From: Verrucomicrobiota bacterium
GTDB lineage: Bacteria > Verrucomicrobiota > Verrucomicrobiia > Limisphaerales > SIBE01
Length of the DNA: 64,000 nucleotides
Reading direction: 5' to 3'
Assembly (NCBI GenBank): GCA_016209525.1
Contig: JACQWK010000074.1
Span: forward strand, 2,205 to 66,204
Part shown: positions 1 to 25,789 of the stretch, piece by piece
Position numbering within the stretch: the first letter of the stretch is position 1
Layout: each line of letters starts with the position of its first letter
Notes under the pieces: generated by a model
The model's database searches: none
Seen by the model: only the letters and a program-made list of their open reading frames with translations
What the model was told of the DNA's origin: nothing
Position numbers and translations under genes: made by a program

Positions 1-1400
1 CATTCCGGTGACCAATCGGCGAGAACCACGCTGCCCATCTTGGGCTCAGCTCGGAGGCGTCCACTATAATCCATGGAACGCGGCAACCGGGCCTTCATCG
101 CAGAAGTGAATTCCAGACCTTGATCGCGGAGCCACTCGGAAGGAAACGCTTGGCGCAAGGATTCGAGCACCACGGAATCGTCCCCTTGAGCTGCCGCCGC
201 TCGCTTCGCCAAGTCCAGTTGGACTCCGCGTGCGGAGAGTCCTCGCTCGCGCGCCCCTGGATTCAGCCAGCGCCGCCATTCGCTGAGCCGGAGCTGATCC
301 TCGGCTTGTGCCAGCGTTTCCTCGATCTGACACGGCTCCTCGGTGGCGCCATAATAGCCGAGCCACGAATTCAGCAGAGTTGTGACAGAAGCGATTCTTT
401 CTTCAAGCGCGGCCGTGCCCTTTTCAGAAAGGATCTCTCCAAGGGTGCGTCGAAAATCCTCCAGCGAAGCCGGGCTGATGATGCGCAGGCACCGGCCCCG
501 AGGCCCTGAGCGAAAGCCGAAACCGAGGAACTCAGCTTGGTCCGCCGGGGTCAGGATTGTTTTCTTCTCGTTCAGGCGCAGCGCGAGGGACGAAAGGAAT
601 CCGGACAGCTCGCTTTTGAATCGCTCGCCTTCCGCGCCTGAGTCCACCAACAACGCCCCATCATCGGCGTAGCGGGCAAAGATGGCGCCGCGAGCATCCA
701 ACCATTGATCCAGGGAATCCAGAACCGCGTTGGCCAGCAGGGGCGAGAGCGGGCTTCCTTGGGCAATCCCTTGAACTGTCGGAAGGATACGCCCGTCCTG
801 GAAGACGCCACAATGCAAGGTCGCCCGAATGAGCTCGAGCAACGCGCCGTCAGTGACCTGCCTCGAAAGCACCGTGAGGACCCGATCATGGGAAACCGAG
901 TCGAAAAAGTCCTCCACGTCGAAGTGAAGCACCCAGCCCGCAGTGGGTGACAATCGGCGTTGGATGTATTGAACCGCATCCAATGGCCCTCTTCCAGGGC
1001 GATACGCGAAGCTGTGCGGGGAGAAGAGCGGCTCGAACACCGGCTGGAGCACCTGGACGATGGCCTGGTGGACGACGCGATCGATGACCGTGGGAACACC
1101 CAATTTCCGGGTGCCGCCTGAGGATTTTGGCACTTCTACACGGCGGACCGGTTTTGGCCGATACTCTCCGTTCAACAGAGCGTCAGCTATTCCTTGAGCC
1201 AGTCCCGGAAACTGCGGCTCCAGGTCGGCAATCGTCACGGCGTCCACGCCGGGTGCGCCGTCATTACGCCGGACCCGTTCCCAGGCTTGGAGCAGGTTGG
1301 CTTCGGACGCCACAGCGGCCAGGCCGGGGGCCGACTCTTCCGAGCGCGGTCCATCGGTGCGCGGACTTCTCCACCGTTCGAGTAATGCTTCAGTTTTCAT
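1..1400 (-). CDS. Group II intron-type reverse transcriptase/maturase, 3'-partial (>=466 aa, no stop in window)
   Basis: Manual translation from ATG 1400: RT0 ANLLQAWERVRRNDGAPGVD, YRPKPVRRVEVPKSSGGTRKLGVPTVIDR, FSPHSFAYRPGR, FDVEDFFDSV, GIAQGSPLSPLLAN, catalytic RYADD, EFLGF, X-domain SWLGYYG...WRRW. Missed by the ORF track because it runs off the edge. Confidence 0.95.
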   Translation of the reverse strand, partial: MKTEALLERWRSPRTDGPRSEESAPGLAAVASEANLLQAWERVRRNDGAPGVDAVTIADLEPQFPGLAQGIADALLNGEYRPKPVRRVEVPKSSGGTRKLGVPTVIDRVVHQAIVQVLQPVFEPLFSPHSFAYRPGRGPLDAVQYIQRRLSPTAGWVLHFDVEDFFDSVSHDRVLTVLSRQVTDGALLELIRATLHCGVFQDGRILPTVQGIAQGSPLSPLLANAVLDSLDQWLDARGAIFARYADDGALLVDSGAEGERFKSELSGFLSSLALRLNEKKTILTPADQAEFLGFGFRSGPRGRCLRIISPASLEDFRRTLGEILSEKGTAALEERIASVTTLLNSWLGYYGATEEPCQIEETLAQAEDQLRLSEWRRWLNPGARERGLSARGVQLDLAKRAAAAQGDDSVVLESLRQAFPSEWLRDQGLEFTSAMKARLPRSMDYSGRLRAEPKMGSVVLADWSPE

Positions 1401-1420
1401 TCAAATTGTGGCTTCCGCAC

Positions 1421-1547
1421 CTACTGAGGAGACCGTAGGATGAACGACACGAAAAAAGCATGTAGTCCCGCCTTTAGGCAGCCCGGACCGGCTAAAGCCG
1501 GGACTACGAACGCCGCGATGTCGCTCATCCCACAGTCTCCTCAGTAA
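1421..1547. mobile_element. 127-bp MITE/REPIN-like element, copy 1
   Basis: Terminal inverted repeats TACTGAGGAGACCGTAGGATGA / TCATCCCACAGTCTCCTCAGTA around a GTAGTCCCG...CGGGACTAC palindrome; equal-length copy at 60128-60254. Confidence 0.85.
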
Positions 1548-1891
1548 TGCCGCCAGCTTCGGCGCCCACGCCAACTTTCGTCACGATGGCCCCGCGATCC
1601 GAACGCAAAATGCCCGATGGCATACAGTCCACCGAAAGCAATGACGACGGGCAGCAGCCACAAGAACCCCGCTTTGAAGGTTGCCAAGTCGCCGCCGGAA
1701 TAGCGCGCCGCGAACGCGGCGACAGCGCTGAACACCAATTCCAGACGCCTGGGACTTCGGCAGCACGCGGCGTACATCGCAAGAATACAAAGCGTTGTGG
1801 CGGTGGCCTCGGCCGAATGAAGCCCGGCGCCGGCAGCCGCCACGGTGAAGAAGGCCAAGCGGACAAGCCGCCCTGGGATAAAGACTGTCAT
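1541..1891 (-). CDS. Small multi-pass membrane protein (start could be 1909)
   Basis: Several hydrophobic segments; stop codon lies inside the MITE; ATGA overlap with upstream 35-aa ORF. Confidence 0.65.
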   Translation of the reverse strand: MTVFIPGRLVRLAFFTVAAAGAGLHSAEATATTLCILAMYAACCRSPRRLELVFSAVAAFAARYSGGDLATFKAGFLWLLPVVIAFGGLYAIGHFAFGSRGHRDESWRGRRSWRHY

Positions 1892-1995
1892 GGATATCGG
1901 AGGTTCCACAAGTGGTCGAGACTCAAGGACCAGAGCACGCCGATGCCCAAGACCAGCAGCACGCTCACCAGTAGTGTTCGAATCAATCTCAGCAT
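1888..1995 (-). CDS. 35-aa single-TM peptide (or frameshifted N-terminus of the next gene)
   Basis: MLRLIRTLLVSVLLVLGIGVLWSLSLDHLWNLRYP; fills the operon gap; ATGA coupling at 1888-1891. Confidence 0.5.
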   Translation of the reverse strand: MLRLIRTLLVSVLLVLGIGVLWSLSLDHLWNLRYP

Positions 1996-2005
1996 AGCCG
2001 TTGCA

Positions 2006-2527
2006 TTACTTCGGGCTGGTTTGGTGATGTCCCAAGGTCGAGAGCCGAAACTCGCAAACGACCACTGGGAGATTAAAGATCGTTGCTTTCCTACCGCTGA
2101 CGACGCAAATGCTTGCCGCGGCCGGCAGCCCGTTTGTGGTGACGACGCACACTCGTCCGGTCGGATCTGTGAGAATGAAAAAGGATTCTCCGGGACGCCT
2201 TGCAGCCAGGTGAACCGACTCAACTCGGCCCAGGAGCAGAACTTTGGTTCCATCCTCCGTATCCTGAAGCGTCTCGCACCGATTGAAGACGGTGAAGTAC
2301 AAAAGCACCTGCGCGGCCAGGAGCAGCAGGCCGGCAAGGAAAAGCGATTTCACTCGCCAGAGCCAGATTTGCACGCGAATCACCCGGGCCACCAGGATGG
2401 CGGCAAGACCGAGAACCAGGACCAACAGTGCGCCCGGTTGCAGCAGCGCAGACCAGTCCTGCAAAGAGAAACCAAGAAGAAACAATGGTGTGTGATGGAT
2501 CATGGAGTCAACGATAGGAGTTGCCAC
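2006..2527 (-). CDS. Membrane protein with 2-3 TM helices and a beta-rich C-terminal domain
   Basis: Hydrophobic N-half; C-half VLLLGRVESV...FFILTDPTGRVCVV..VVSG looks OB-fold-like; overlaps upstream gene. Confidence 0.7.
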   Translation of the reverse strand: MATPIVDSMIHHTPLFLLGFSLQDWSALLQPGALLVLVLGLAAILVARVIRVQIWLWRVKSLFLAGLLLLAAQVLLYFTVFNRCETLQDTEDGTKVLLLGRVESVHLAARRPGESFFILTDPTGRVCVVTTNGLPAAASICVVSGRKATIFNLPVVVCEFRLSTLGHHQTSPK

Positions 2528-3509
2528 TGGCCTCTGGTTGCTTTTCCGCCGGGTCGGAAATGTAGATGAATTGGCTGCCCCGCAAGAGAATCCTGTTCAC
2601 GACATAAACCACCGACTGATCGTGGATCAGTAGATCGCCGTCGGTCACCGTCACGGTTTCTGGGTCGCTGATTCCCGCTGCGGCGATGGCGGCGAATTGC
2701 TTCCGAATGATCGACGAACCCACATCCGCCGTCGGGTGAAAAAACAGTTTAGCTGGTCTTCCGGCGAAGCAGAGTTCTACGGCCTCGGACAGCGCGGCAA
2801 ACGTCCCGTTCGGTCGGAGGTTGAGTGCGGAGGCGGAAATGTTTCGGGCGGTCCTCGAATCCAGCTTGATCAGCCTCGGATTCGTCTCCTGTTGCAGCAG
2901 GACGATCATCTTTTCGACCTGCCCGTTGAGTTCACCTTCCGCCACAATGAACCCCCGTTCCTTCCGGGCGAGCGTGAGAATTTCACCCGGAACGTAGCTG
3001 GCGAGCAACAGCGGCGGCCCTTTCCTTTCCAGCATCCACGCTTGGGCCTGTTCGAAATGATGGTCCCGTATCGGAAACGCCTTGCGGGAGTCGGCAGGCC
3101 TGGATTCGATCTCCTCGACCGGTGGCTTTACCTCCTTGGCGACAATCGCGTTGGTGACGGAGTCCTTCACCGGCGGAAGGCTCAACTTTTCCGGCTTGAG
3201 CTCCAGGACGTTGGTTTTGACTGGAAAGGCAGATGGCGTTGGGGGAGGCGCCTGCGGGGCATTGTCCGCAACGAATTCAGCCAGCGGAGGCTCTTGGCGC
3301 CGCTCCGCCGCCGCGACAGCAACAGGCTGGGGGGATGGCGGCGGCGGCTCTTGGCCCAGCCACAGGAACAGAGGTGCGTTCAGTGAAGGGATCAGCTTCT
3401 TGTCGTGTATCCAAACGAGGCCGAGCATCATTAGAATCAGCAGCGCCATAGCGGCGGCAAAAGCCAATTGATATCTGTGTTTGATGGTCAGGTTTTTCCA
3501 GCGTTTCAT
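2508..3509 (-). CDS. TonB/TolA-like architecture protein (N-terminal TM, Pro-rich linker, globular C-domain)
   Basis: TM LAFAAAMALLILMMLGLVWI, then EPPPPSPQP/APPPTP linker; immediately follows the ExbD-like gene. Confidence 0.7.
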   Translation of the reverse strand: MKRWKNLTIKHRYQLAFAAAMALLILMMLGLVWIHDKKLIPSLNAPLFLWLGQEPPPPSPQPVAVAAAERRQEPPLAEFVADNAPQAPPPTPSAFPVKTNVLELKPEKLSLPPVKDSVTNAIVAKEVKPPVEEIESRPADSRKAFPIRDHHFEQAQAWMLERKGPPLLLASYVPGEILTLARKERGFIVAEGELNGQVEKMIVLLQQETNPRLIKLDSRTARNISASALNLRPNGTFAALSEAVELCFAGRPAKLFFHPTADVGSSIIRKQFAAIAAAGISDPETVTVTDGDLLIHDQSVVYVVNRILLRGSQFIYISDPAEKQPEASGNSYR

Positions 3510-3510
3510 A

Positions 3511-3921
3511 TCATTCAGGAATTATGGCCAGGTGTGTCTTGGGCTCACGAAGACCCCTTTGCAGTTGCGCCAGGAGCCGGAAGAGGGACCCAGCCGGCTC
3601 CTTCTCGGTATGATGGATCAGGACGCCAAGGCCGCTGGCAGAGTTCGTAGCCCCGTACCGAGCCAGCCAACGGGCAAACTCTTGCTCGTTCACGGGGACG
3701 CTCTCCCGCGATCCGATCCGCACGCGCGACTCCGAAACATAAAGGGAGAGATCGACCTTGCGCTCCCCATCGCGGCCAGTGCTTCCAGCGCCAACCGGAA
3801 GCTGGGGACTGGCTTGGCTTCCGATGAGAAGCAAGAACACCGCCACGAGATTCATCAGGAGGTCCGATTGAATCACGCTCAGGGTTGGATCATTCGACTC
3901 GCTGAATTTCATAAAACTCAT
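3511..3921 (-). CDS. ExbD/TolR-like protein
   Basis: Single TM with Asp at its start (QSDLLMNLVAVFLLLI) and a small periplasmic alpha/beta domain; downstream of ExbB-like gene. Confidence 0.7.
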   Translation of the reverse strand: MSFMKFSESNDPTLSVIQSDLLMNLVAVFLLLIGSQASPQLPVGAGSTGRDGERKVDLSLYVSESRVRIGSRESVPVNEQEFARWLARYGATNSASGLGVLIHHTEKEPAGSLFRLLAQLQRGLREPKTHLAIIPE

Positions 3922-3956
3922 TGCATAAGCTTTCGCGCAAATTGCACAACGGCCCC

Positions 3957-4724
3957 TCACCCTGAATCCCTCTCCCCGCGCAATTCGCCGGCTTCGCATT
4001 CAACAGCGCGGGGAGAGAGCGCGGGTGAGAGGTGCATGTACTCTTGAAACGCTGCATCCGCTGCTTCAACGGAATTTGCAGAGCCATTGTTCGGCGCCTC
4101 ACCCGCGGCAGGAGTTGTCGGTGGCGGATTCAGACGCGGTTTGGTGAATTGATCCAGGAGTTCTCCGCCTTCAAATTCCAGATCGCTTTCGAGCTTTTCC
4201 AACGCGCGAAGGCTGCCGGCTTCGATCTCGCTGGCAATAGCGCCCAAGAGCGTCGTTCCCAATCCCATGCAAACGGCGGCGACCATATCGACGCTGCTGC
4301 GGCTATCGGCAAATGTCAGGGAACCCAGCAACAAGCCGAGAATCGTGCCCGCGAATCCGGCGACGGCCGCTTGGCCACGATTAGCACGGCATGCGCGGAC
4401 AAGCGGGGCAAGCGCTGATCCGATATCCCGGTTCACCCAGCGCTCGAATGTGTCGGATGGAACCGAGGTCCCCTTCGCCAGCCGGCAGGCCGTATGGATG
4501 GCCGGATGGACATGAACCTGCGCAATACAGTTCAAAGCGGACGCCCGATCCGCCGCCTCGTCGGCCAGGATTTGTTCCAAAGCCTCCTTTCCCAGCGCGA
4601 GTTGCTTGGTCAGACATCGTCTCGAGAAGACATGCCACAGCGCTCTGCCCAAACACCACGCCGAGGTCAAGTAGGCCGCAATGACCGTCGGTGAAAAGCC
4701 AAGGAGTTTATCGAGTGTCGTCAT
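3957..4724 (-). CDS. MotA/TolQ/ExbB proton-channel family protein
   Basis: N-terminal TM, then AGFAGTILGL and MGLGTTLLG matching the family GLxGTVxG / ALxTTxxG TM pair. Confidence 0.8.
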   Translation of the reverse strand: MTTLDKLLGFSPTVIAAYLTSAWCLGRALWHVFSRRCLTKQLALGKEALEQILADEAADRASALNCIAQVHVHPAIHTACRLAKGTSVPSDTFERWVNRDIGSALAPLVRACRANRGQAAVAGFAGTILGLLLGSLTFADSRSSVDMVAAVCMGLGTTLLGAIASEIEAGSLRALEKLESDLEFEGGELLDQFTKPRLNPPPTTPAAGEAPNNGSANSVEAADAAFQEYMHLSPALSPRAVECEAGELRGERDSG

Positions 4725-4731
4725 AGTTCTG

Positions 4732-5235
4732 TCATTTGGACGCCTTTTCCGCTTGGTTTTGAAGCTGTTCGACGCGCCGCTTCAACACATCTAACTGCGC
4801 CGCCAGCAGTCGAACCTGGCTTTCGAGCCGCGCCATTCGCGCGTCCGGAGTCGGCCGTGTGACCGATTCCGGCAGCGGAGCGACGACCGCAGCCTCGGCC
4901 GGGGGCGAATTTACCGCCGCTGGTGGCACGGCATTGGTCCGTGCTGGCCGCATCTGTTCGACCATCGGCTTCAACTCAGACAGAATCGTGGCGGACCGCT
5001 TTTGGAGCGTCTGCAGGTACTTCTGCCGATCGATCGTGCCGGCTTCCGCCGCGATGGCGCGGACGGTTTCCGCGGCTTCGATGAAGTTGAACTCTGGCAG
5101 GACAGGGCTCTGGCCCTGAACTTGGGCCGGAGGACGGTTCGTTGCAGGCGACGCCGAATCCTGGCCGGACAAGGTGGTGGTCATGAGAACGGTGAGTGCG
5201 GTTACGAGTGTGGTTTTCATAGTTAGAATAGTCAT
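4732..5235 (-). CDS. Secreted protein with C-terminal coiled coil
   Basis: Signal peptide MKTTLVTALTVLMTTTLSG; heptad RMARLESQVRLLAAQLDVLKRRVEQLQ; ATGA overlap. Confidence 0.75.
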   Translation of the reverse strand: MTILTMKTTLVTALTVLMTTTLSGQDSASPATNRPPAQVQGQSPVLPEFNFIEAAETVRAIAAEAGTIDRQKYLQTLQKRSATILSELKPMVEQMRPARTNAVPPAAVNSPPAEAAVVAPLPESVTRPTPDARMARLESQVRLLAAQLDVLKRRVEQLQNQAEKASK

Positions 5236-5456
5236 GGTTTTGAGTTCGGGTTTTCGCCTTGCGCCGCGAGTTCCAGCGTGGCGCGGAGTTTCTGCGCCAT
5301 CGCCAGGACTTCCGGATCGACCTGGGGCTTGGGTTTCGCGCTTTCGGGCTGGACGATCTCAGATGGCGTCCGCTCCGAGGTTTCGCTTTTCGAGCAGCCG
5401 CTTGCCAACAGGAGGCTGAAAGTCCCGGCCAGGAGCAAAATTGGTTTCATTCTCAT
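5232..5456 (-). CDS. Small lipoprotein
   Basis: Lipobox LLLASG-C after a basic/hydrophobic N-terminus. Confidence 0.75.
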   Translation of the reverse strand: MRMKPILLLAGTFSLLLASGCSKSETSERTPSEIVQPESAKPKPQVDPEVLAMAQKLRATLELAAQGENPNSKP

Positions 5457-5459
5457 ACG

Positions 5460-6482
5460 TTATTGCGAGTATTGGTTGAGTTGGTCCAACAGGGAACGCG
5501 AGGCTTCCTGTTTCGGTGCCGGTTCCGACTGCTGGGGCTTGGACCGATCCGGAACTTCCGGGGAAAGGCCCAGCAGCACCTGCCGCATCCCGTTCGCGCC
5601 TTTCTCTAGTACGCCCACGACTTCTTTCACGTGCCGGGTCACTTCGGCCGCGCGGCGAGACACCGCTCCTCCTTCGGCGACCACACCGGTCTCGCTGCCC
5701 ACGTAGCTGAAAGCCTCCGCCATCTCCTGATAGTCTTGGACGATGAAACCAAGCTTCTCCGCTTGCCGCGCGAGGTCTGCTTCGGAGTTTCGCAGAATCG
5801 CCTCGGCTTCCGTCAACTCGGCGAACGACCACTCGTTGATCTTGAAAGCAACCTTGGTGGCATTGGCCGCACGAAGGGCCTTCTCGATCATCTTGCGCAA
5901 GGGCGCGGGAATTTCCTCGTCGCTGCCGAAACCGAGGTCGCCCGCGACTTGGGCGAGTTCCTTCAAGCCGCTCTGTAAGGCCTCGGTCGTCTGCCGCAAT
6001 TGGCTGCTGTCGTGCTGGCGTGTGGACGTGTAGCCCTGCACGACGCGCAGCCCATTGACAACCTCGCCGTAGGCCGACCGCGTGACTTCCTGTGTGGCCT
6101 CGGCCTTGCGGACGATCTCGTCGCAGCCGCGTTTGCCAGTCGCCGCGGCGGCGGCCATGGCCTGGAGAAGCGTCGCCAAATTCGGATCGGACGGATCGCC
6201 TTGATACGCTTGGATAGCCGGGGCCAGCCGCTGCGCCGCCGATCCCAACTTGCCCAATTCGGCGCTGATTTCCTTCTTGAACTCTTGCAGGACGGCCGAA
6301 TCAGACCTGGCTCGGCTCGCCTGGGCTTCGGGAATTTCGCGCCGACCGAATTCGCCCACTTCACGCCCCTGCTGGGCGAATGCGGTCGAGGCCAGCAACA
6401 GATAGGAAGAAATGAGGAGGGTGGTTTTCATCGAGAGGATATTTTTCATGGGTATTGCTGTCATGTCTGGCTTCGCGTTCAT
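5460..6482 (-). CDS. Secreted long alpha-helical/coiled-coil protein (in-frame starts at 6701, 6482, 6431)
   Basis: Signal peptide MKTTLLISSYLLLASTAFA-Q; Ala/Glu/Gln-rich amphipathic helices throughout. Confidence 0.8.
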   Translation of the reverse strand: MNAKPDMTAIPMKNILSMKTTLLISSYLLLASTAFAQQGREVGEFGRREIPEAQASRARSDSAVLQEFKKEISAELGKLGSAAQRLAPAIQAYQGDPSDPNLATLLQAMAAAAATGKRGCDEIVRKAEATQEVTRSAYGEVVNGLRVVQGYTSTRQHDSSQLRQTTEALQSGLKELAQVAGDLGFGSDEEIPAPLRKMIEKALRAANATKVAFKINEWSFAELTEAEAILRNSEADLARQAEKLGFIVQDYQEMAEAFSYVGSETGVVAEGGAVSRRAAEVTRHVKEVVGVLEKGANGMRQVLLGLSPEVPDRSKPQQSEPAPKQEASRSLLDQLNQYSQ

Positions 6483-6522
6483 GCTTTCAAGGTTGGCCAT
6501 CGGCGCGCGAAACGCACGGTTC

Positions 6523-6540
6523 CGGATATCCGCGGATGTT
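6523..6540 (-). promoter_or_regulatory. Putative operator GAYRTC-N4-GAYRTY, copy 1
   Basis: CGGATATCCGCGGATGTT, 41 nt from ATG 6482. Confidence 0.7.
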
Positions 6541-6741
6541 CGTATTGCAGGTGCTTCCTTCTGATGGGCTGGCACTCCCGCTGCAGGGACACTTTGGAAA
6601 ATCGCGGAATCGTACTGACTCCTCCTGGGATCAAACGAGGCGGAGAATCGGATTCTTACCGGCCACTTCTGCCTGCGGAGAATTCGCACTTTGAGCTTCA
6701 TGGGGTGAAGCTCTCTCGAATCAGCGGAAAAATACAGCGCC

Positions 6742-6759
6742 CGGACCTCAGCAGATATC
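6742..6759 (-). promoter_or_regulatory. Putative operator, copy 2 (degenerate)
   Basis: CGGACCTCAGCAGATATC, 41 nt from ATG 6701. Confidence 0.55.
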
Positions 6760-6782
6760 AGGAACGGTCGGTCCCAATCCGA

Positions 6783-8066
6783 TCAGTCATTGAGCACGCG
6801 GAAGGATGGCAGGCGCCAAGAGCGCTCAGGAGGCTTCCACTGGCTGTGCTTTTTTCGCAACCAACTTCGGAGCGCGCTCAATGCCGTGGACACCTTATGG
6901 CTGTCAATCGCGTTCACCCAGGCGTCCGGTGGAGGGCCTTTGAATTCGTGGTGGATTCGTTCCGCCAATTCCCGAGTCGCTTTGTGACTGATGCGGCTCT
7001 GGTCTGGTTTGACGCCGCAGCTTGCCTTGAATAACTCGGCAGCCATGACGAAGTCGCGGCAATTGTCGTCATTGACCCATCCTTGTTCGTTGGCTTCGAA
7101 TACGAACCGGACAACATCAAAAGCATTGCGGCCCTCGATGTCACAAACAAGAGCGTTCACCCGCACCCGGCAATTGGCTCGGTCGAAGAGAATGACCGCC
7201 TCCGGCGCACTCATGGCGTCGCGCTTAAGCCAGTTGCTGATTGTCCGCACCAAGCCCATGAATCCTCCCGGCACTTCTCCCAGATCTCGAAATCGGTTGA
7301 TCAGCGGGACAAAGGGAATGTCGGCCAGATCGATTCGGGCGTCAGAAGCGCGCACCGGCTGTTTGTCCCTCCCCGCCGTCAATTCCTGAACGGGCTGTTT
7401 GGGGAAGAAGAAGCCCCGACAATCGTCGAATGGACTGTTGACCAACACGTGAGTCACGCGGTCGGTCTCGCGCCCCAACAGGCTCATGCAAGCGTAGAGT
7501 AATGCTCCCATCGTCTTTCGGCCTCCGGCAATCGACGCAATAACGCGAGTGTCCGGATTGCCGACGAAACGCCGGACTTCCTCGAGCATGAAGTCGGCGG
7601 CGGCCACATTCTGTGCCGGGGTGCGCAGGTCGAGTGCAGGAGCCTTGACGCCGGTTGAAGGATCGGGCAGTTCGATGATGCGGCGACTCGGGATTTGCAG
7701 GCGCAAATCCGACGTTGCGGAAGGGCCCAACACGGCCCGGCGGAGTGTCTGCCACACGCTATATTCTCCCCATCCGGGCAGCGGTTTGACGACTCCGTCC
7801 TGCAAATTGAGAAGGTCTCGCTCGATGTCTTCGTTGCCCTTCGTCGTTGTGATCAAGACTACCTCATCAGGAATGATCCTCTCCTGGCCCTCAGGCGGAT
7901 GGGCCAGTCTCCAGATGGTTTCGGTGATGATCGCCGGCGACATGCCGGTAACGGCGAGCAGGACAGTTTGGCTGGGACCGGCACTGAGTGAGCCAGCGGA
8001 TTCAGCGGCGCTGGATGCTGGCTCCTTGGCGCGGGCGCCAGTCTTGGACTTTGATTTTGGTTTCAT
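6783..8066 (-). CDS. NE0113/TIGR02584-family CARF protein (Csx14-like; often annotated as ring nuclease) with C-terminal wHTH-like region
   Basis: LLAVTGMSPAIITET, PDEVVLITT, DLRT..N..AADF, ASIAGGRKTMG, SLLGRETDRVTHVLV signatures. Confidence 0.9.
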   Translation of the reverse strand: MKPKSKSKTGARAKEPASSAAESAGSLSAGPSQTVLLAVTGMSPAIITETIWRLAHPPEGQERIIPDEVVLITTTKGNEDIERDLLNLQDGVVKPLPGWGEYSVWQTLRRAVLGPSATSDLRLQIPSRRIIELPDPSTGVKAPALDLRTPAQNVAAADFMLEEVRRFVGNPDTRVIASIAGGRKTMGALLYACMSLLGRETDRVTHVLVNSPFDDCRGFFFPKQPVQELTAGRDKQPVRASDARIDLADIPFVPLINRFRDLGEVPGGFMGLVRTISNWLKRDAMSAPEAVILFDRANCRVRVNALVCDIEGRNAFDVVRFVFEANEQGWVNDDNCRDFVMAAELFKASCGVKPDQSRISHKATRELAERIHHEFKGPPPDAWVNAIDSHKVSTALSALRSWLRKKHSQWKPPERSWRLPSFRVLND

Positions 8067-8138
8067 CGGATAATGGATAGCAGCGACTGACGGCTGGAGG
8101 CGAATTGAGGATGTCGGTGGATGTCGGCGGCGGCGCAT

Positions 8139-9230
8139 TCAAGATGCATCAAGGAGTTCTTGCAGGCCGGAGTAGAGGGTTTCTTTAGTTAGTACCGGCA
8201 CGCCAAGATCGGCCGCGAATTGCATGACCTCCGCCGGAAGCACGCTCTTGCGGACGAAAACCACCTTCCCCAGCAGACCGCCAGCTCGCTGGACATCAAG
8301 TATGGCCTGCTTTAGCCAGATGTAGTGGGTCGCTTCAGCTTCATTTTCGAGCTGTTGGAGGCTACGAAAAATGGCATCGGCACCGTCACGTTTCTTGTCG
8401 ATGAAGTGGCGCACTTTCGTGAATTTGGCCCGGTGCGTGGTTCGGTCCTTGCAATCCACCAGCCAGAGTTTTCCGCCATAGTTGAAGACCACATCAAAGT
8501 CTGTTTGCTCCTTCGTCGTTCCGGCTTCGCGGATGCCAACGCTGCGATAAACACTCTTCACTCCACGCCACAGAGCGATTGCCGCCACGGCATATTCCAG
8601 CGAATCGCCCCGCTGCGGCTCGGAAGCAGGACGGCGGCGGCTGGTGAAGAAACTATGGGCGTTGGTCAATAGTTGCTTATGGAAGGACTCGGTTGAAACG
8701 TCCTCCCGCAATTGAAGCTTCTCGCCGCGACCGGACAGTTCGGTGTGGGACATCTGGCAAAGGAGCAGGTCCAAGGCATCCAGCTTGTCGGCAATGTGGC
8801 CGTCGATTTTTTCGGAGGAAGTCGTCAGATCCCGATTCTCAACCTTGAACCAAAACAACCGATTGCCTCGCTCCAGATAACAGGCAGGAACTTTGTTGCG
8901 GATGGCGTCCAGAAAGGCGCCAGTCGCCATCAATTTGTTGCCGCCGGTGAAGTGGGTGAGCCAGGAGGCGTCCTTTGCCTTCCCGCGGATTTCACGGCAA
9001 ATGCTCTCCACTTGGCGCATGTCATCGTGCGGAATTCGAACCGTCTGGATAGAGCTGCCGCTCAACAAGCCGGATTTGATAAAGAAATCTCTGAGGCGCC
9101 GGGCCGGTTTTTCAGATTCCTCCGCTTCGGAACTGTGCAAGAGAATCAAGCGTTCCGGTCGCAAGTGACTCACCACGAGCACATGCGGCCATACTTGTTT
9201 GGAAGCTAACGAAAGAAGAGTGGAGGGCAT
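8139..9230 (-). CDS. Card1/Can2-like CARF + PD-(D/E)xK nuclease (DUF1887)
   Basis: SLASKQVWP, HFTGGNKLMA CARF motifs; GDSLEYAV...DFDVV...LVDCK nuclease motifs. Confidence 0.85.
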   Translation of the reverse strand: MPSTLLSLASKQVWPHVLVVSHLRPERLILLHSSEAEESEKPARRLRDFFIKSGLLSGSSIQTVRIPHDDMRQVESICREIRGKAKDASWLTHFTGGNKLMATGAFLDAIRNKVPACYLERGNRLFWFKVENRDLTTSSEKIDGHIADKLDALDLLLCQMSHTELSGRGEKLQLREDVSTESFHKQLLTNAHSFFTSRRRPASEPQRGDSLEYAVAAIALWRGVKSVYRSVGIREAGTTKEQTDFDVVFNYGGKLWLVDCKDRTTHRAKFTKVRHFIDKKRDGADAIFRSLQQLENEAEATHYIWLKQAILDVQRAGGLLGKVVFVRKSVLPAEVMQFAADLGVPVLTKETLYSGLQELLDAS

Positions 9231-9409
9231 AGGCTTTGTTGAGAGGTTTAGGGTAAGAGATCAGTAGGTGGGCCATCGGATATGATAAGCACGGTTGTGG
9301 CCGTCATGTGGCCGAGGACCCGAAACCGGCAGTGACGTCAGCCAACGCTGTGCCGAAGGCTTCCGACGAGCAAAAGCTGACTTGGGCTTTTCGGATTGCG
9401 GACTGGCCG

Positions 9410-9622
9410 TCAAGGATTCCAGACGCCGCCGTCCAGTTCGGGCGGCCACTCGGCGAGGTCGTCGGGTGTGTTGAAGTTTTCGTGGTACCAGCGGAGTTCC
9501 TTTTCGCGTTCTTCGCGGGGTAGCCGCGCCCAAGCGGCTTTCTCCTCGCCCATGGTCCGGGCCAGATGTTCGTAGTATTCTTCCGAGTATTCGATTTCAG
9601 GTTCAACGGGAACGATTCTCAT
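9410..9622 (-). CDS. Small acidic hypothetical protein
   Basis: 70 aa, ATGA-coupled to the upstream nucleotidyltransferase. Confidence 0.55.
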   Translation of the reverse strand: MRIVPVEPEIEYSEEYYEHLARTMGEEKAAWARLPREEREKELRWYHENFNTPDDLAEWPPELDGGVWNP

Positions 9623-10629
9623 GGCAACAACTCATCTAATGGCGGACAGACCTGGTCCAGTTCAGATTGCGTGGCGGCAGTCAGATTGGCAACTTTGGTC
9701 AGCGCGGCGAGAAGGAGTTCGTGTCGGGGAAGACTCGCCAGGGGATTGGGCTGGAGCCGGTGCGCACGGGCGGCAGATAACAGTTGTTGGTGCTGCGCCA
9801 GAAATGGCTTTTGGGTTGGCCAGATCCAGCCGTCCTCCTTGCGCCAGGAGCGAAAGAACTCCTTCCAAGCGCGGGTGTATTGGCCGTGGCGTTGCGCATT
9901 GACGCATTCCCAAATGAGCCGTTCGATCAGGAGCAGTCGCTCCACCTCATCGACGACGGGTGGCGAGGGGCTTTCAAAGACGCGCAGGAGTGGGCGTCTG
10001 AGCGCCAGTCGCGCACGGGTGGCGGGATCGGTTGCCGTCCCGGTGGATATCAATGCCTGATACTCCTGGAGGTGTAACAGCGCTTCAGGACGGCCGCGCT
10101 CGCCCAACTGACGACCCAGGCCATGGACAATGGGCCAGTCCTTTGGGCGGTCGGTGCGTTTCATCTGGGCCACGACGTGGCGGGTGGCCCAACCCTCAGC
10201 ATCCACTGCGAGATCGTCCGCTCGGACGCGCGGTGGTTTACCGAAAATATCCACTTTGTGTTCCGGCGAAGCTGGACCGTCCCACACGGATAAATGGCTC
10301 GTCCAGCCCATGGCGATGTACTCGAGGTCCAGCGGCGCGCCGCAGATAGACCGGTAAGAAATGCGCCATGCCGGGCTGGCCTGTTCGAGACAGCTCAACA
10401 GTTCGCGCAGTTTGCCCATGTCCTCTGGCGCGATGATCCAATCGGAGTCTTTGGTGGTTTGCTGGAGACCGTAATGGACGCAGGCCATGCCGGAAGTGAT
10501 GGCAAAACGGATGCCGGCGCTCCGGATCTGTCCGGCGAAGATTTTGAGAAAATCAAGCGGCGCGCTCACGGGGAAAGTTGGAGGATTCCGATTTTTGATT
10601 CTTGATTGGCCATTTTCGGTTCGGTTCAA
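9619..10629 (-). CDS. Nucleotidyltransferase-fold protein (AbiEii/DUF6036-like) with helical C-terminal extension; start may be GTG 10569
   Basis: FAITSGMACVHYG..TTKDSDW, VDIF, MKRTDRPKDW motifs. Confidence 0.75.
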   Translation of the reverse strand: MNRTENGQSRIKNRNPPTFPVSAPLDFLKIFAGQIRSAGIRFAITSGMACVHYGLQQTTKDSDWIIAPEDMGKLRELLSCLEQASPAWRISYRSICGAPLDLEYIAMGWTSHLSVWDGPASPEHKVDIFGKPPRVRADDLAVDAEGWATRHVVAQMKRTDRPKDWPIVHGLGRQLGERGRPEALLHLQEYQALISTGTATDPATRARLALRRPLLRVFESPSPPVVDEVERLLLIERLIWECVNAQRHGQYTRAWKEFFRSWRKEDGWIWPTQKPFLAQHQQLLSAARAHRLQPNPLASLPRHELLLAALTKVANLTAATQSELDQVCPPLDELLP

Positions 10630-13987: not shown

Positions 13988-14027
13988 GGGTTGGTTTTAG
14001 GGATTAGCGAGTTCGCTGGCCATCGTT

Positions 14028-14045
14028 CGGACGTCCGGGGACGTG
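14028..14045 (-). promoter_or_regulatory. Putative operator, copy 3
   Basis: CGGACGTCCGGGGACGTG, 41 nt from cmr4-B ATG 13987. Confidence 0.75.
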
Positions 14046-14047
14046 TT

Positions 14048-14171
14048 GTGGGTCAGACCTCCGGTCTGACGGTTCCGGCTTGCTCCGCAAGCCCGAACTG
14101 GGAGCGGGATCTGGCTCTTGGCCCTGGGAACCGGAGGTTCCCGCAACCGGCAGAGCGGAGCTCTGCCCCAC
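14048..14171. repeat. REPIN-like unit at RAYT 3' end
   Basis: GTGGGTCAGACCTCCGGTCTGAC ... GGCAGAGCGGAGCTCTGCCCCAC; related to 14795-14927. Confidence 0.75.
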
Positions 14172-14794
14172 ATGCAAGCTGCTCCAGCGCCAGCCATCGG
14201 GCCGCGCGCAGAGGCGGGCGTTCACGGGGTTCATCGTGGTGTAGGCGCAACAGCGGGCGAGATCATCGTCGTCACGACAGCAGTGGTCGTAGGATTCGCT
14301 TTGCCAGAATGTCTGGCCTTCGCGCCCGAGGAGGCGGTTGGCATGAACGGCGGTGTAGGTTTTCCAGCTTTTCAGAATCGCACTCAGGGTGTGCGGCGGC
14401 GTAGGATGGACCACCACGTGGGCGTGGTTGGGCATGACTACCCAGGCGTGGAGAGTGTAGCGTTTGCCCTCGAAGTAGCGCACCGCGTTGGCCACCAGTT
14501 CCGCCACGGCCGGATTGCTCAGCCAGCAGTCGCCGTGGCCAGCGTCGAGGTATTTGTCCACGCGGTCGGAATACCAGTTAAAGAGGTCCTTCTGCTCGTG
14601 CCAGGTGAGCGGGCGGTTGTGCGCCAGCGCCTCTTCAAGGATGGCTTCGCGCTCGCGCTTCAACCGCAGGAGCACCTCGCGCGGGAGCGTGTCTGCCAGG
14701 CGAAAGGTTACGAAATAACTGGCGCCTTCGCGCTTGAGATGAGGCAGCGCGCCTCGTGAGTGGACGCCGGAAACGAAGGGAGACGGCTGCGTTT

Positions 14795-14927
14795 CTGGGT
14801 CAGGTCTCCGACCGGACGGTTCGGGCCCTCTCTGAATGCCGGTAGGTGTTTGACTCTCGCCGGTTGCGTGGGTCGAATCCTCGGAGTCGGAGACTCCGGG
14901 AACCGGCAGACCGGAGGTCTGCCCCAC
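14795..14927. repeat. REPIN-like unit at RAYT 5' end
   Basis: GGGTCAGGTCTCCGACCGGACGGTTC ... GGCAGACCGGAGGTCTGCCCCAC. Confidence 0.75.
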
Positions 14928-14965
14928 GATAGGCTGCTCATCCGATCGTTTCCTGTTGTTGTGAT

Positions 14966-16345
14966 TCATTGGAAGACCTCCTTGGCAAGCGCCTCGATTT
15001 TCGTCGAACTTGGATGCATCTGCACGTCGAAACCGACCAGTCCGTAGCCGCAGCCTTTCTCGCCGTAGAAGTCGGAGCGCGGCTGCCAGTGGAGTTTCTT
15101 CGCCAGCGCCGTGGCCGTTTCGCGGTCTTGGCAGAGGAAGTAGAAGACGGAGCCGGGCGGCACCGCGAGCATCGTTGGCTTGGCGCAGCCGTCCACCACA
15201 TCCCAGCCCGAAACCACCAGGGGTTTTCCCAGGCACCAGGAGATGAGTTGAGCGCGTCCGGGAAGTTCGAAGCAAACGCGTCCGACGGGCAGCGGGCCAG
15301 CGGACCGGTCCTTCTTCGTGTCCACGCACCAGCCCGGCAGGCTGCCGTGTGCAAAGATGGCGGGCGTGACGAGCACCCATTTCAGGAGGCATGGACCGCC
15401 CGAGACTGGTGGTGCTGGAGGCGTTATGAGGTCGGCAAAGAAATCGGGCAAGGGCTGGTTGTCGGCCTTCTTTTGCCAGACGCGGGCGAGGCGACGCTCG
15501 CCACCGAGCAGCAGCCAGTCGAGGTTTGAAATTTGCTTTGCTTCCCCATTGGCAGCGGCGCGGGCGTCGCCGAGATCAAGTTGGGCGGCGAAGCGAGTGT
15601 GAGCGTGAGTGCGCAAGAAACTGCCGGCGTAAAGCTGGCCCTCGGCGGCGGCGAAGCTCGTCGGATTGATTTCCACGCCGACGCGATGCTCAGACTGCCA
15701 CAGTTCGTCGGTAGGCAGCGGACGGAAACGTCCGTTCGCGCTATCCGATTCGCCCTCGAGGCAAGCGAGGTATTGGGCGATGGTCCACCAACCGTGGAGT
15801 TGACCGTGCTTGTCGGGCGGAGTCGTAGCCAACGGCAGGCACAGGGGCTCAGTGGTCTCCACTTCCTTCGCTTCGCCGGAGTTGACCGAAGGATTTCGCC
15901 CGAGCTTGAGACGCCGTAGATGCTGGCGACTGTCGTCGAATGCGAGATCAAGCGGGACGGGAAGCAGGGGGCCTTGGTAGGTCACTTGTAATCCGGTGGG
16001 CTGGCCGTTTTTCATTTCTTTCCAAGTGAACGGGTCAGCGAGGAACGGCAGCGGACCAACGATGCGGAGCGAACGAAAGGCGCGAGTGACGATGAGGCGG
16101 CGGTCCTTCTCCGGCCAATCCTCACCACGCCAGTTTCCTCTGCGTGGAGCTGACTTGGGACGTCCCACCTCGCTCTTTTCTCGCACTGATGGGCCCGTGG
16201 CCAAAAGCAGACTGGCGCGGAAAGCTTCGTGCAAGGTGCTGGGGAAAGGCATCCGACATCCGGCCCCTTTACCCTGGCCGGCAGACATTGGGATGGCGTC
16301 GCGGAAGAACAAAACGTCGGCGGGTTCAAGCAAGACGGTGTTCAT
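14966..16345 (-). CDS. cmr3: Type III-B Cmr3 (operon B)
   Basis: LEPADVLFFRD, LGGERR, LVTPAIF, VSGWD..KP..AVPPGSVFYF, GEKGCGYG; ATGA overlap with cas10-B. Confidence 0.95.
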   Translation of the reverse strand: MNTVLLEPADVLFFRDAIPMSAGQGKGAGCRMPFPSTLHEAFRASLLLATGPSVREKSEVGRPKSAPRRGNWRGEDWPEKDRRLIVTRAFRSLRIVGPLPFLADPFTWKEMKNGQPTGLQVTYQGPLLPVPLDLAFDDSRQHLRRLKLGRNPSVNSGEAKEVETTEPLCLPLATTPPDKHGQLHGWWTIAQYLACLEGESDSANGRFRPLPTDELWQSEHRVGVEINPTSFAAAEGQLYAGSFLRTHAHTRFAAQLDLGDARAAANGEAKQISNLDWLLLGGERRLARVWQKKADNQPLPDFFADLITPPAPPVSGGPCLLKWVLVTPAIFAHGSLPGWCVDTKKDRSAGPLPVGRVCFELPGRAQLISWCLGKPLVVSGWDVVDGCAKPTMLAVPPGSVFYFLCQDRETATALAKKLHWQPRSDFYGEKGCGYGLVGFDVQMHPSSTKIEALAKEVFQ

Positions 16346-19161
16346 GGCTGTTCGGTTGGTTGATGGATCCGGTTCACAAAGGCCCAAGCCATCCAGAAGT
16401 GGATGAAGTTGCGCGGAGACAGGGCAGGTTCGTTGAGATTCTCACCAATGAGCGCGCCAATCCAGCGGCCGGCGTTGCTCGTGGCGTCGGCCTGGTCTTG
16501 GTTCGCCTGCTTTTTCAATACATGGCGCAACTCAGCTTCCACAGAGCCCTTCAAGTCCGAAGTCCATTGCTTCTCCCAACCGTCGTCGTTGTTCTTGTCG
16601 GTGGAGCCCAGCAACGGGCGAATCAACTGGAGGTAGCGATAGGCAAAACGTCCGCTCTGATCGAGATGCCCACTGCTGAGTTCGGCCCAAACGCCGGCCA
16701 CGCCGCTGGACCATTTCGCCGCGAACCGGGCCGACTCGCCGCAGCGTTTGAGGATGCTTACACAGAAAGCGCCTTTCCCAGGCACGGACTTGGCCGCGTG
16801 TTCGGCGTCACGCGCGGCCTGAATGGTGTCTTGCATGGGCGTGCGAACGTGGCCGATCGCGATGCCGACCGACGCGGTGGATTCGGGTCCCATGACCATG
16901 AGGGGCCAATTGGGGCGATGATGCTCCTCTGAACTCGCGTGCTCCTGGCAGCAAACGAAACCGGGCGTGGGGAATTCAAAGAGGTTCAACAATACTCGCC
17001 GAACGCGATTGTCTTCGGGCAAAGATTCGATTGCTTTTTTATCTCCACGAAAGGCCAGCGTGAGCGCTTGAGCGCAATCCAGGGCAGTTTCGGCGGGCAA
17101 CATGGCCAGGACGTCGTCGCCTCCAGAGAAAAGAAGCCGCCCGTGAAACTCGTCGTGTTCCACGATGGACTTAACGCAGTAGAGGCCGAAGTTGCTGAGG
17201 GCTTCGGAAAGGGCCACATGGAATCCTGGCGTGAGCACGCGACGAACGCTTTTGAATGGCGGCAGGCCAGCGGAATTGGAGGTATCCCAGTACTTCTTGA
17301 AATAGCCCTTCGGTGATTTCTCGTCTGATTCGTCACCAGCAAGCGAAGTCAAAAGCGGCGGCGCTTTCACTCCACTCACCCATTGGCCCATGTCGTCCCC
17401 GTCCATCGCGAGGACGGCGTAATAGGTCGGTTCTTTCTCTTTAGCTGCCTCGCCCTCTTCGCGGGCAATCGCGACGTCGATGACTGACTCAAACTCCGGT
17501 GGCATACACTTTAGGATTTTCATCATCCAGAGGTTTGAAAGACGTTTGATGACGTTCAAAGCTCCGTACTTTTGTTTGCCTTTGAACTTGCCACGCTCCT
17601 CGCCGCCGTAGGCTTCGCGGAGCACAGCCCAAAACCGATTGTTTGGATTGTCCGGATTGTCTTCGGCCAGCCCTTGAGTCGGGCCGCCCAAAACTTCGCT
17701 CCGTCCATCCAAGTGGTCCTTGGGCACGCCACGTTCCAGTTGCCGGTTGGCGCCATCCCAAGTGGCGAAGGCGCGGGCATTCTTGGCGGCAGCGAATTTC
17801 CAGTCGGTAAGGGCGTAGTTCAGTGCCCAAACCAAGCCCGCGTTGTCGAAAACCGGCATTGCTCCGAGTGCGAGTGGTTGACCGTTCGCGTCCAACAGCA
17901 GAGATTTCCATTCCGTCCCCTCTTTCCACGACTTGCGCTTGTAGCAGCGGGCGTCTCGGTGTTCGGGAAGGATCATCTCTCTGGCCCATTGAACCGCGTG
18001 CCGGAGCGGGTGGTTCTTCCATCCATCCTTCAGCGGCGGTGTGGCAAGCTCTTCGGCTTGTTTGATGGCCTGCTCCGGCCCAAGCCAGTCATGCACGACG
18101 TAATCCACGATTGGGAAGCGGGCGACCTGTTCATCCCAGAACATATCCCAGTCGGGGAAGTGGCCGTCCGTCTGTTTCAGCTCTTCGACAATGTCGTCAC
18201 GGACTGCTTTGGCGATTCGGCTCCATTCGGTACGAACAGACTCCTCGGCAATCTCAGGAAGCGTCTTTCCGTCGGGTTTCGCGTCTTTCCGCCATCCCTT
18301 CGGAATTACCGCGAGGAAGCGGTTGGGTAGGTTCGGCGTGAGCAGTTCGTTTTCGTGCGAAGCGCGCAGCTTGCTTGGCAGGATGCCTTGGTTGTGCCAG
18401 AACCAATCTGCCAAGGGCACGCCGCGCAGTTGAGGGTAGATGATAGCGTCGGGACCGATTTCGCGAGCGATCGCCAACATCGCTTGCGCGATGAGGTAGC
18501 TCAGCAAAAAACTGCCGGCCCATAAATCCTGTGTCTTGCGGGCCTGCTTGATGAAATCCTGAACAGGACCGATCTGGAACAGGAGAAAGGAGACGCCTTG
18601 CTCGCAATTCGCCAAGGCGCTGACCAACCCGTTGTGCTGCCAAAGCGTGTGGTCAGGAATGCGAGTGTCGGCGACCAGGAAGTTGAGTTGTCCGGTCTCG
18701 CGGGCGCAGAGTTCGGGCCAAAGGCGCCAGACCAGTGGGAATTTTCGTTTCCAGTCCTGTCCTTCCTTGGCGCCGACGCGCTGAAGGGCACGGGTCATCA
18801 TGGTTTCCGCGGCTTCAGGCGTGGCCGGAAACTCGGAAAGGGACAACGACGTCCCCGCGAGCGGATGGTGGAATGCGAAGCCGCTTTCCCTCCAATCCGA
18901 CCTGACGCCGCTGAGTTCGGGATGGGGAAAGACAAAACGATCCGCCGCCGCAGCCATGTGATCGTCCATACGGACGAAATGGTGGCGCATGTCATCCAAT
19001 GTCAGACCTACTTCCCGCAGAAATGATTCGCGCGCGTCTTCATGCCCCGCGATGCGGAAAGGCTTGTGCGGCGGATCGTGCAGGAAGGCGAGGAGTTTTC
19101 GTTTCCAGAGTTCAGACATAACGCGAAGAGGGTTTGAAGCGGGCGCAGGACGTTCAGTCAT
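16342..19161 (-). CDS. cas10: Type III-B Cas10/Cmr2 (operon B)
   Basis: KLLAFLHDPP, ADTRIPDHT, IGPVQDFIKQARKTQDLWAGSFLLS, AMDGDDMG, FSGGDD. Confidence 0.97.
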   Translation of the reverse strand: MTERPAPASNPLRVMSELWKRKLLAFLHDPPHKPFRIAGHEDARESFLREVGLTLDDMRHHFVRMDDHMAAAADRFVFPHPELSGVRSDWRESGFAFHHPLAGTSLSLSEFPATPEAAETMMTRALQRVGAKEGQDWKRKFPLVWRLWPELCARETGQLNFLVADTRIPDHTLWQHNGLVSALANCEQGVSFLLFQIGPVQDFIKQARKTQDLWAGSFLLSYLIAQAMLAIAREIGPDAIIYPQLRGVPLADWFWHNQGILPSKLRASHENELLTPNLPNRFLAVIPKGWRKDAKPDGKTLPEIAEESVRTEWSRIAKAVRDDIVEELKQTDGHFPDWDMFWDEQVARFPIVDYVVHDWLGPEQAIKQAEELATPPLKDGWKNHPLRHAVQWAREMILPEHRDARCYKRKSWKEGTEWKSLLLDANGQPLALGAMPVFDNAGLVWALNYALTDWKFAAAKNARAFATWDGANRQLERGVPKDHLDGRSEVLGGPTQGLAEDNPDNPNNRFWAVLREAYGGEERGKFKGKQKYGALNVIKRLSNLWMMKILKCMPPEFESVIDVAIAREEGEAAKEKEPTYYAVLAMDGDDMGQWVSGVKAPPLLTSLAGDESDEKSPKGYFKKYWDTSNSAGLPPFKSVRRVLTPGFHVALSEALSNFGLYCVKSIVEHDEFHGRLLFSGGDDVLAMLPAETALDCAQALTLAFRGDKKAIESLPEDNRVRRVLLNLFEFPTPGFVCCQEHASSEEHHRPNWPLMVMGPESTASVGIAIGHVRTPMQDTIQAARDAEHAAKSVPGKGAFCVSILKRCGESARFAAKWSSGVAGVWAELSSGHLDQSGRFAYRYLQLIRPLLGSTDKNNDDGWEKQWTSDLKGSVEAELRHVLKKQANQDQADATSNAGRWIGALIGENLNEPALSPRNFIHFWMAWAFVNRIHQPTEQP

Positions 19162-19201: not shown

Positions 19202-19354
19202 CGGACGTCCGGGGACGTCGGAGGAAATTCTTGGAGTTTTGGGCTTCTCTTGCACGGTTTTCCTTTGGCTACGGTCGAGAAGTGTATGGCGCGCAGCGGC
19301 CCAGGCAACGGAAAGTTATTGGATGTTGTTCACTGGCTTTTCACAGGTTACTCC
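19202..19354 (-). promoter_or_regulatory. Conserved cas10 leader, copy B (operator copy 4 at 19202-19219 plus upstream sigma70-like promoter)
   Basis: Near-identical to 31941-32091; operator 41 nt from ATG 19161; sense TTGCCT-N16-TACACT upstream. Confidence 0.8.
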
Positions 19355-19689
19355 TGCTCAGCACCCAAACCCTTTCGGTGTCTGCAGAGAAATGGGACGA
19401 GGCGGTCCTGCCAGCCTGCCGGCAAGGTGGCCGTAGTCTCATCCACCCCGTGGGCGTAGTAGCCGAAGGTTTGATGAAACGTGGAAAGCTCGCCGATTGC
19501 GCCGTCGATCAAGATGGATGTGGCTGGAGCATGGTGCGGAAACACATCCGCCTCGATCGAAACCAACAAATCAGTGGGCGCATCGGGAAACTGGCCGAGC
19601 ACAGCTTGGCTTCCAACGACAACGATCTCTCGCTCGTCGGTTATGGCAGCGGCGGCGCGAAGGATGTGTTCAAACTGGCTGCGATTCAT
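19348..19689 (-). pseudogene. Truncated DUF6036-like nucleotidyltransferase
   Basis: MNRSQFEHILRAA..IVVVGSQA..EADV..GYYAHGV..LPAGWQDRL, then stops; lacks the K..GREKD region of the 32228 paralogue. Confidence 0.8.
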
Positions 19690-20020
19690 AGCGCTCCAGG
19701 ATAGCCAGGCGCTCCTGCGGTGTGAGCACGCCCGCAAACGGACTGGACTGGCGCAGGCGCCTGGCGCGCTCGTCCGTTGATCGGAGCAGTGCCAAAAGGT
19801 CGTTGAACGGGAGTGTGTCGAGCAGGTGTTGCCATTCCAGCAGGGCCGGCTGTCGATTCTGCGCCAGCCACCGTCGGAGGTTGCGACGGGCCACTTCCAA
19901 TAACTCGGGATGTTCGGCCAGCTTTTTGGCCACAGCGTCATGCAATGCCAGGCTGCGCTGGTCGATCCATTCGTGCGATCTCATACCGTCAACCGTAAGG
20001 TTTCCTGCTCCATCCGTCAT
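19670..20020 (-). CDS. Partner (putative antitoxin) of DUF6036-like NTase
   Basis: C-terminal RLRQSSPFAGVLTPQER shared with 32752-33066 (RLRDFAPFAGVLTAAER). Confidence 0.75.
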   Translation of the reverse strand: MTDGAGNLTVDGMRSHEWIDQRSLALHDAVAKKLAEHPELLEVARRNLRRWLAQNRQPALLEWQHLLDTLPFNDLLALLRSTDERARRLRQSSPFAGVLTPQERLAILERYESQPV

Positions 20021-24757: not shown

Positions 24758-24760
24758 GGC

Positions 24761-25150: not shown

Positions 25151-25154
25151 AGGT

Positions 25155-25783: not shown

Positions 25784-25789
25784 AGGCCA

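Follow-up and report, generated by a model that had tools for sequence, protein, structure and literature searches.

A 64,000-nucleotide window of a Verrucomicrobiota draft genome (contig C412:2205-66204 of the 10.1-Mb genome G000; 59% GC) holds a run of envelope genes, here called A to H, framed by genes for CARF proteins on one side and by a reverse transcriptase (RT), cas1, and cas2 on the other. Six of these, A to F, form a conserved cassette that is probably a Ton/Tol-type proton motor, carried as a mobile passenger between the CARF genes and the RT-cas1-cas2 genes; the RT itself is likely an ordinary spacer-acquisition RT. The cassette's independence from both CRISPR and the RT is the most likely reading.

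Nine minus-strand open reading frames (ORFs), A to H plus one of 35 amino acids, lie co-directional and abutting between the gene for the NE0113-family CARF protein and the RT, with gaps of -4 to 35 nt (Table 1). A first-pass annotation made from the DNA letters had described about ten co-directional, abutting or overlapping genes in this place, and this description held, with a YADD RT following the nine. Its distance of ~80 nt from NE0113 to the operon start was not borne out, because the corresponding ATG (6701) would add 90 residues before the signal peptide of A; the database protein starts at 6431, and the gap is 351 nt. No significant match to A-H was found in Pfam, NCBIfam, or PADLOC. 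Contigs from two DNA runs of one study cover positions 1-10000 at even depth, and a second-run contig spans 5474-7007, that is, across the A/NE0113 junction. No single assembly piece bridges H and the RT because the pieces break at the core of a hairpin repeat.

Relatives of A were sought with a profile built from 5 remote homologues, themselves found among 1.84 billion representative proteins. In an order-level sample of 400 other genomes, this profile gave one full-length match, in genome G008, and no match was obtained in 11 other genomes of the family. In G008, A-B-C-D-E-F abut in the same order as in G000. Identity between the two copies is ~20-27%, and pairwise comparison against 300 shuffles gave Z scores of 10.0, 5.0, 2.1, 8.5, 4.2, and 14.4 for A, B, C, D, E, and F, respectively. 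Shuffles scored as high as the B pair in 1 of 300 cases and as the C pair in 9 of 300 (7 of 300 for the C-like protein of metagenome contig L026, described below), C being weak alone. G and H were not found with the G008 cassette. The first-pass annotation, which proposed a dedicated CRISPR-linked machine, had called for a survey of homologue neighborhoods; the survey bore out a conserved A-F order but returned no RT or cas gene in the 60 kb around the G008 cassette. Neither Cas1 nor the Cas10 palm domain was found in G008 (95% complete), in searches whose positive controls gave matches in 7 and 6 of 14 genomes, and since this is the only other complete A-F found, the proposal of a dedicated machine was not upheld. 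Downstream of the G008 cassette lie DUF1592/DUF1552, deacetylase, phospholipase C, and type II secretion system (T2SS) genes, with PCMT genes also in the neighborhood. Upstream, a divergently transcribed gene (L060 16801-17949) encodes a 382-amino-acid XRE-HTH regulator whose large C-terminal region is unclassified; the regulator may report the inducing signal of the cassette and has no match in G000.

For D, 27 of 30 ESM Atlas feature hits are MotA_ExbB (PF01618) clusters (score 0.91), the top-ranked hit being an unnamed cluster (0.92), and the best Atlas structural match is a MotA/ExbB cluster (TM-score 0.62 over 200 residues); Pfam itself, PF01618 included, gives no match. D has the MotA/ExbB fold class with three transmembrane helices, and its Thr127 and Thr158 are invariant in the G000/G008 pair. 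The last ~30 codons of D come from a genomic repeat at 3952-4040 that overlaps the D/E junction and has 24 blastn rows on 23 contigs. E has one transmembrane helix, with Asp20 within it in both copies. When compared with the host ExbDs by hhalign, E gave the best of six cassette alignments, though not a significant one (probability 0.9%, E 0.06), and it may be called ExbD/TolR-like by motif only. F has a transmembrane helix at 16-34 and a Pro-rich stretch at 54-140, an architecture shared with G008. Its ~180-amino-acid C-terminal domain is conserved in three genomes, and the single-sequence AF2 model of F (pLDDT 43) is too poor for a fold test of this domain. The host genome contains five separate canonical ExbB/TolQ/MotA genes, so the D-E-F motor would be accessory. 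As the first-pass annotation had stated, there is no TonB-dependent receptor, TolB/Pal, or OmpA-like domain among the cassette and flanking genes.

The A model matches only generic coiled coils. Chains of alpha-pore-forming toxins are among its fold hits (Z 11.2, rmsd 6.1, 230 residues aligned), tied with unrelated coiled coils, and for this reason no pore-forming-toxin assignment is made. Several A homologues end in a short amphipathic helix, which is less clear in G000.

Parts of the cassette were also detected in two further settings. Metagenome contig L026 carries an A homologue, then a small transmembrane protein (B, not significant) and a C-like protein (weak), directly behind a TerY-P-like triad of vWA-like (by eye), PP2C, and kinase-zinc-ribbon genes. 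The 21 kb of this 36-kb contig that were examined yielded no D, E, or F. The triad's neighbors (L026 2749-9569 and 14178-16928) encode an unclassified lipoprotein, a coiled-coil protein with multiple transmembrane segments, and a fusion of a ClpX-like AAA ATPase with a type IV coupling-protein-like domain. Genome G076 retains a decayed F, comprising the C-terminal part only with two in-frame stops, ~370 nt from the 3' end of tRNA-His; no A was found in that genome. From the gene order and the matches across these contexts, A-F emerges as the conserved unit, from which A-B-C may be separable. The cassette is rare and patchy, and one of its two complete copies lies in a CRISPR locus.

Wider searches added no further copy. 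Sequence searches with D and F against 5.8 billion proteins (E 0.01) returned only the window's own proteins, and the A alignment returned only two of its own members. D alone had no match in 100 relatives, tblastn of plasmids with D and A gave none, and G000 itself has no second A-F cassette. Weak partial matches to A profiles in a phylum sample (2 of 400 genomes) and a class sample (1 of 250), together with two weak A matches in the order sample and one weak F match, were set aside as short or of low complexity. An F-domain profile found nothing in 80 and 79 further genomes in searches run without a positive control. Neither species genomes nor viral contigs yielded an A relative in pattern scans, with patterns that would also miss the G008 copy. 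The genome samples overlap, and their counts cannot be summed.

The RT follows H at a distance of 140 nt, with the hairpin repeat lying between them, and cas1 begins 4 nt after the RT stop; the envelope operon therefore does not end in the RT, as had been thought. With cas1 starting so close, there is no room downstream of the RT for group II intron domains V-VI, and no Rfam intron RNA match was found in the window (contig positions 1-2204 were outside the scan). Type III effector genes, cmr1-6, are present upstream in the same locus. In the order sample, RT matches at E 1e-60 or better were found in 19 of 401 genomes, amounting to 25 loci. cas1 is directly downstream in 4 of the 24 non-self loci, and the RTs of these four are 41-45% identical to this one vs 33-39% for the rest. 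In a 23-row RT tree, from which two identical copies were dropped, the four cas1-adjacent RTs and this RT fall on one side of a branch with 100/100 support; long branches are flagged and there is no outgroup root, and the grouping is therefore a split rather than a proven clade. No A-H homologue occurs in the flanks of three of the four cas1-adjacent relatives (the fourth contig is 3 kb), which argues against the suggestion that the RT works with the envelope machine. In two related loci the slot between cmr1 and the RT is instead filled by large transmembrane (TM)-CARF effectors (L052 13304-14716, L054 10431-11932), one of them with Csx3. The idea that G and H are remnants of these TM-CARF effectors was considered and rejected. 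Together, these data place the RT in an RT-cas1-cas2 adaptation module, a known kind of CRISPR RT; RTs adjacent to cas1 have been described in type III CRISPR-Cas loci (PMC6013744, PMC5513706).

The palindrome ACGTCC-NN-GGACGT, at ≤1 mismatch, is present in 15 of 101 genomes vs 0 for the reversed control. The next gene is cas10, cmr4, or cas1 in 10 of 18 non-self loci (L005, L006, L009-L011, L013, L015, and L017-L019; by eye from translations), and some non-cas genes have the palindrome before them as well (argH-like on C552, L003, L022). With a position weight matrix (PWM) built from 12 cas-linked sites, two of them from this window, the sites at 19220, 31959, 14046, and 26865 (minus strand; before both cmr2 and both cmr4 genes) rank 1st, 2nd, 3rd, and 5th in the genome. 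A degenerate copy lies before A; its score is reached at 193 of the 20.2 million positions in the genome. Sites this good are expected 0.007 times in the 370-nt gap and 0.13 times in 6.8 kb, figures that overstate the significance because the site was chosen before the matrix was built. Two Cmr operator copies had been claimed for the operon; the operator is real and one degenerate copy (6541-6521) stands, while the next best site in 1-6800 is at chance level. Co-regulation of A-F with the cas genes in this one genome is possible. A literature search covering few subscription papers and no supplements yielded no description of this operator and no ExbB or MotA/TolQ motor associated with type III CRISPR.

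Apart from the D fold class and the residues kept in D and E, the mechanism we propose is inferred from established ExbBD/TolQR biology. In it, D and E would assemble 5:2 into an inner-membrane motor, and protons would pass Asp20 of E and the threonines of D. F would serve as a single-pass transducer whose Pro-rich linker crosses the periplasm and whose C-terminal domain pulls on a target there. The likeliest target may be the co-encoded exported helical A, held by its small partners B and C, or an A-B-C assembly, and the outcome would be an accessory envelope-remodeling or membrane-stress function.

Several observations weigh against a motor cassette that is a mere passenger at this locus. 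E lacks a significant profile match to ExbD. No TonB C-terminal domain was detected in F, whose head has no Pfam, PDB, or Atlas match, and F has neither the SHLS motif as described in the available text of PMC12204202 nor, in either copy, a His inside the transmembrane helix. The early description of D-E-F as ExbB/ExbD/TonB-like holds for the D fold, the transmembrane Asp of E, and the transmembrane and Pro-rich layout of F. GC and GC3 of A-F equal those of the cas genes, so composition shows no recent transfer. The RT, at 311 bits, passes the NCBIfam group II intron cut-off of 300 bits, and the weak cas-operator copy before A is above chance for that gap. The L026 genes, with no D-E-F in the 21 kb examined, indicate that A-C may not depend on the motor, and they sit in a defense-associated context. 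Finally, independence from CRISPR rests on few cases, because only one other complete cassette was found.

Other explanations account for part of these observations. A-F could be a decaying or non-motor envelope operon in which the ExbD and TonB likeness of E and F is superficial, as the low identity between the two copies, the G076 pseudogene, the want of significant profile matches for E and F, and the repeat across the D/E junction would allow. In both genera, nevertheless, all six frames are open and coupled. Both copies keep the D threonines and the E aspartate, and D has the MotA/ExbB fold; we regard this reading as very improbable. The model of the first-pass annotation, a dedicated type III-B ancillary machine working with Cmr signaling and the RT, has in its favor the same-strand position between NE0113 and the RT and the one weak operator copy. 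It is largely refuted and hardly tenable: the cassette is complete in G008, for which searches returned neither Cas1 nor Cas10, and was not found in the readable flanks of three related RT-cas1 loci, and the RT is tied to cas1 and split from H by a high-copy hairpin. No cyclic oligoadenylate (cOA) sensor domain (CARF, SAVED) was detected in A-H by scans that do detect CARF in the neighbors, and linkage to cas10 loci does not recur (1 of 2 complete cassettes, a small sample).

A more serious competitor, although we give it the lesser chance, is that A-F is an envelope system in its own right, directed against phages or antagonists and accumulating in defense islands. Its motor would respond to a breached envelope by driving A into or across a membrane to block entry or depolarize the cell, and A-F would share the cas operator here. 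Two of four contexts are defense-linked, namely the III-B locus and the position behind the TerY-P-like triad, TerY-P being described as defense-associated in the text available from PMC11090510; a third is the tRNA-side remnant in G076. The weak operator copy before A, the membrane TM-CARF effectors that occupy the same slot in related loci, and the toxin chains among the A fold hits, tied as they are with unrelated coiled coils, are consistent with this view. However, those fold hits are generic for helical bundles, and the genes around the complete G008 copy are not defense genes but T2SS, DUF1592/1552, and PCMT genes and a divergent XRE regulator. There is also no PADLOC Zorya match, and no ZorA-type tail or peptidoglycan-binding, nuclease, CARF, or SAVED domain was detected. 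That A-F moves between defense islands and has here been brought under the operator of the type III-B cmr operons appears rather unlikely. Overall, we favor the passenger motor cassette.

Table 1. Features of the envelope cassette and its surroundings. Positions are those of the window unless contig C412 is named.
Feature	Position	Strand	Basis
Gene A: exported 323-aa long helical bundle, signal peptide, cassette core	5460..6431	-	AF2 pLDDT 75, all helical; 5 remote homologues and G008
Gene B: 74-aa, membrane-anchored; lipobox here, plain transmembrane helix in G008 and L026	5232..5456	-	sequence; G008 positional homologue
Gene C: exported, small, helical, low-complexity	4732..5235	-	sequence; weak positional counterparts in G008 and L026
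Gene D: divergent MotA/TolQ/ExbB-fold motor subunit (predicted)	3957..4724	-	ESM Atlas features and structure; G008 homologue Z 8.5
Gene E: ExbD/TolR-like, single transmembrane helix with Asp20	3511..3921	-	assigned by motif and position; Asp kept in G008, Z 4.2
Gene F: N-terminal transmembrane helix, Pro-rich linker, ~180-aa C-terminal domain; predicted force transducer	2508..3509	-	G008 homologue Z 14.4, G076 remnant
Gene G: protein with 2 transmembrane helices, C-terminus OB-fold-like by eye	2006..2503	-	weak DUF4131 match E 0.016; no match in G008
35-aa ORF, single transmembrane helix	1888..1995	-	sequence
Gene H: 116-aa hydrophobic protein	1541..1891	-	sequence; no match near G008 or L026 cassettes
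NE0113-family CARF protein, type III-B ancillary gene, upstream neighbor of A	6783..8066	-	PF09623 E 3e-24, TIGR02584 E 1e-56
CRISPR-associated group II-like RT, YADD, 514 aa	1..1400, ends 144 nt past window edge	-	PF00078 E 6e-34, TIGR04416 311 bits
cas1	contig C412 2055-1054, past window edge	-	start 4 nt after RT stop
cas2, then 4-repeat CRISPR array cut by contig end	cas2 = contig C412 810-532	-	past window edge
REP/MITE-like hairpin repeat between H and RT, ~126 nt	1422..1546	.	-96 kcal/mol; 518 blastn rows on 218 contigs, both orientations counted
Degenerate operator copy, 90-110 nt before A	6521..6541	-	PWM score 9.0

The remainder of the window sets the cassette within a larger CRISPR locus. 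Along the minus strand, the genes run cmr2, cmr3, a REP-associated transposase gene, cmr4, cmr5, cmr6, cmr1, an ORF without family match, the CARF-nuclease, NE0113, A-H, and the RT. The REP-associated tyrosine transposase gene, with its flanking inverted repeats (14004-14970), separates cmr3 from cmr4, and cmr4 behind it has its own operator copy. Cmr2 (16342-19161) retains GDD in both palm motifs, AMDGDDMG and SGGDDV (by eye), as would fit an enzyme that makes cOA for the CARF-nuclease (8139-9230). At ~21.8-31.7 kb (21840-31650), ~2.7 kb upstream of this cmr operon, there is a second, divergent one of type III-B (by eye), with the same palindromic operator before its cmr2 and cmr4. Nucleotidyltransferase-like or antitoxin-like small genes (by eye) are interleaved with the cas operons at 19348-20020, 21190-21642, 32228-32971, and 9619-10629, and gave no significant family match where scanned. 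The spacers of the array match only the array itself within their own genome. An Rfam Acido-Lenti-1 RNA match was found at 56805-56851 (40.8 bits).

Among known systems, ExbB-ExbD-TonB and TolQ-TolR-TolA share with the cassette the gene order motor-A, motor-B, transducer. D resembles them in its ExbB fold with two conserved transmembrane threonines, E in its transmembrane Asp, and F in its succession of transmembrane helix, Pro-rich linker, and globular domain. Unlike them, the cassette has no PF01618, ExbD, or TonB_C Pfam match and no SHLS in F, the F head matches no known family, and the extra envelope genes A-B-C lie upstream; no TonB-dependent receptor or TolB/Pal is found among the flanking genes in G000 or G008. 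The vWA force transducers of Verrucomicrobia and Planctomycetes, of unknown function, likewise pair a TolQ/TolR-like motor with a TonB-shaped transducer bearing a non-TonB head, according to the text available from Williams-Jones et al. 2025 (PMC12204202). The cassette is closest in spirit to these, with a different head: F has no vWA match and no SHLS His, a single E replaces the heterologous pair, and no TPR gene is present. Zorya ZorAB, as far as described in the text available from PMC11946911, is alike in placing a MotA/MotB-like ion motor in a defense setting. It differs in its long ZorA tail and ZorB peptidoglycan-binding domain, both missing here (D is 221-255 and E 136-139 amino acids long), whereas the cassette has a separate transducer and exported partners; no ZorC/D/E occurs among A-H or in the G008 flanks, and there is no OmpA, Zorya HMM, or PADLOC match. 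The RT is group II-like, lacks an intron RNA, and immediately precedes cas1, cas2, and the array of a III-B locus, showing no substantive difference from the cas1-adjacent RTs as available from PMC6013744 and PMC5513706.

This part of the finding is known biology. For CRISPR regulation, a separate lead is the operator conserved in front of cas genes throughout this order. A defensive role of the cassette has a real but minority chance; if true, Zorya would no longer be the only immune design built on a motor. New output domains are being found on Ton/Tol-type motors, and to these the cassette adds a transducer head of no known family and three partners, and it may offer a small testable system for what else Ton/Tol-type motors pull on.

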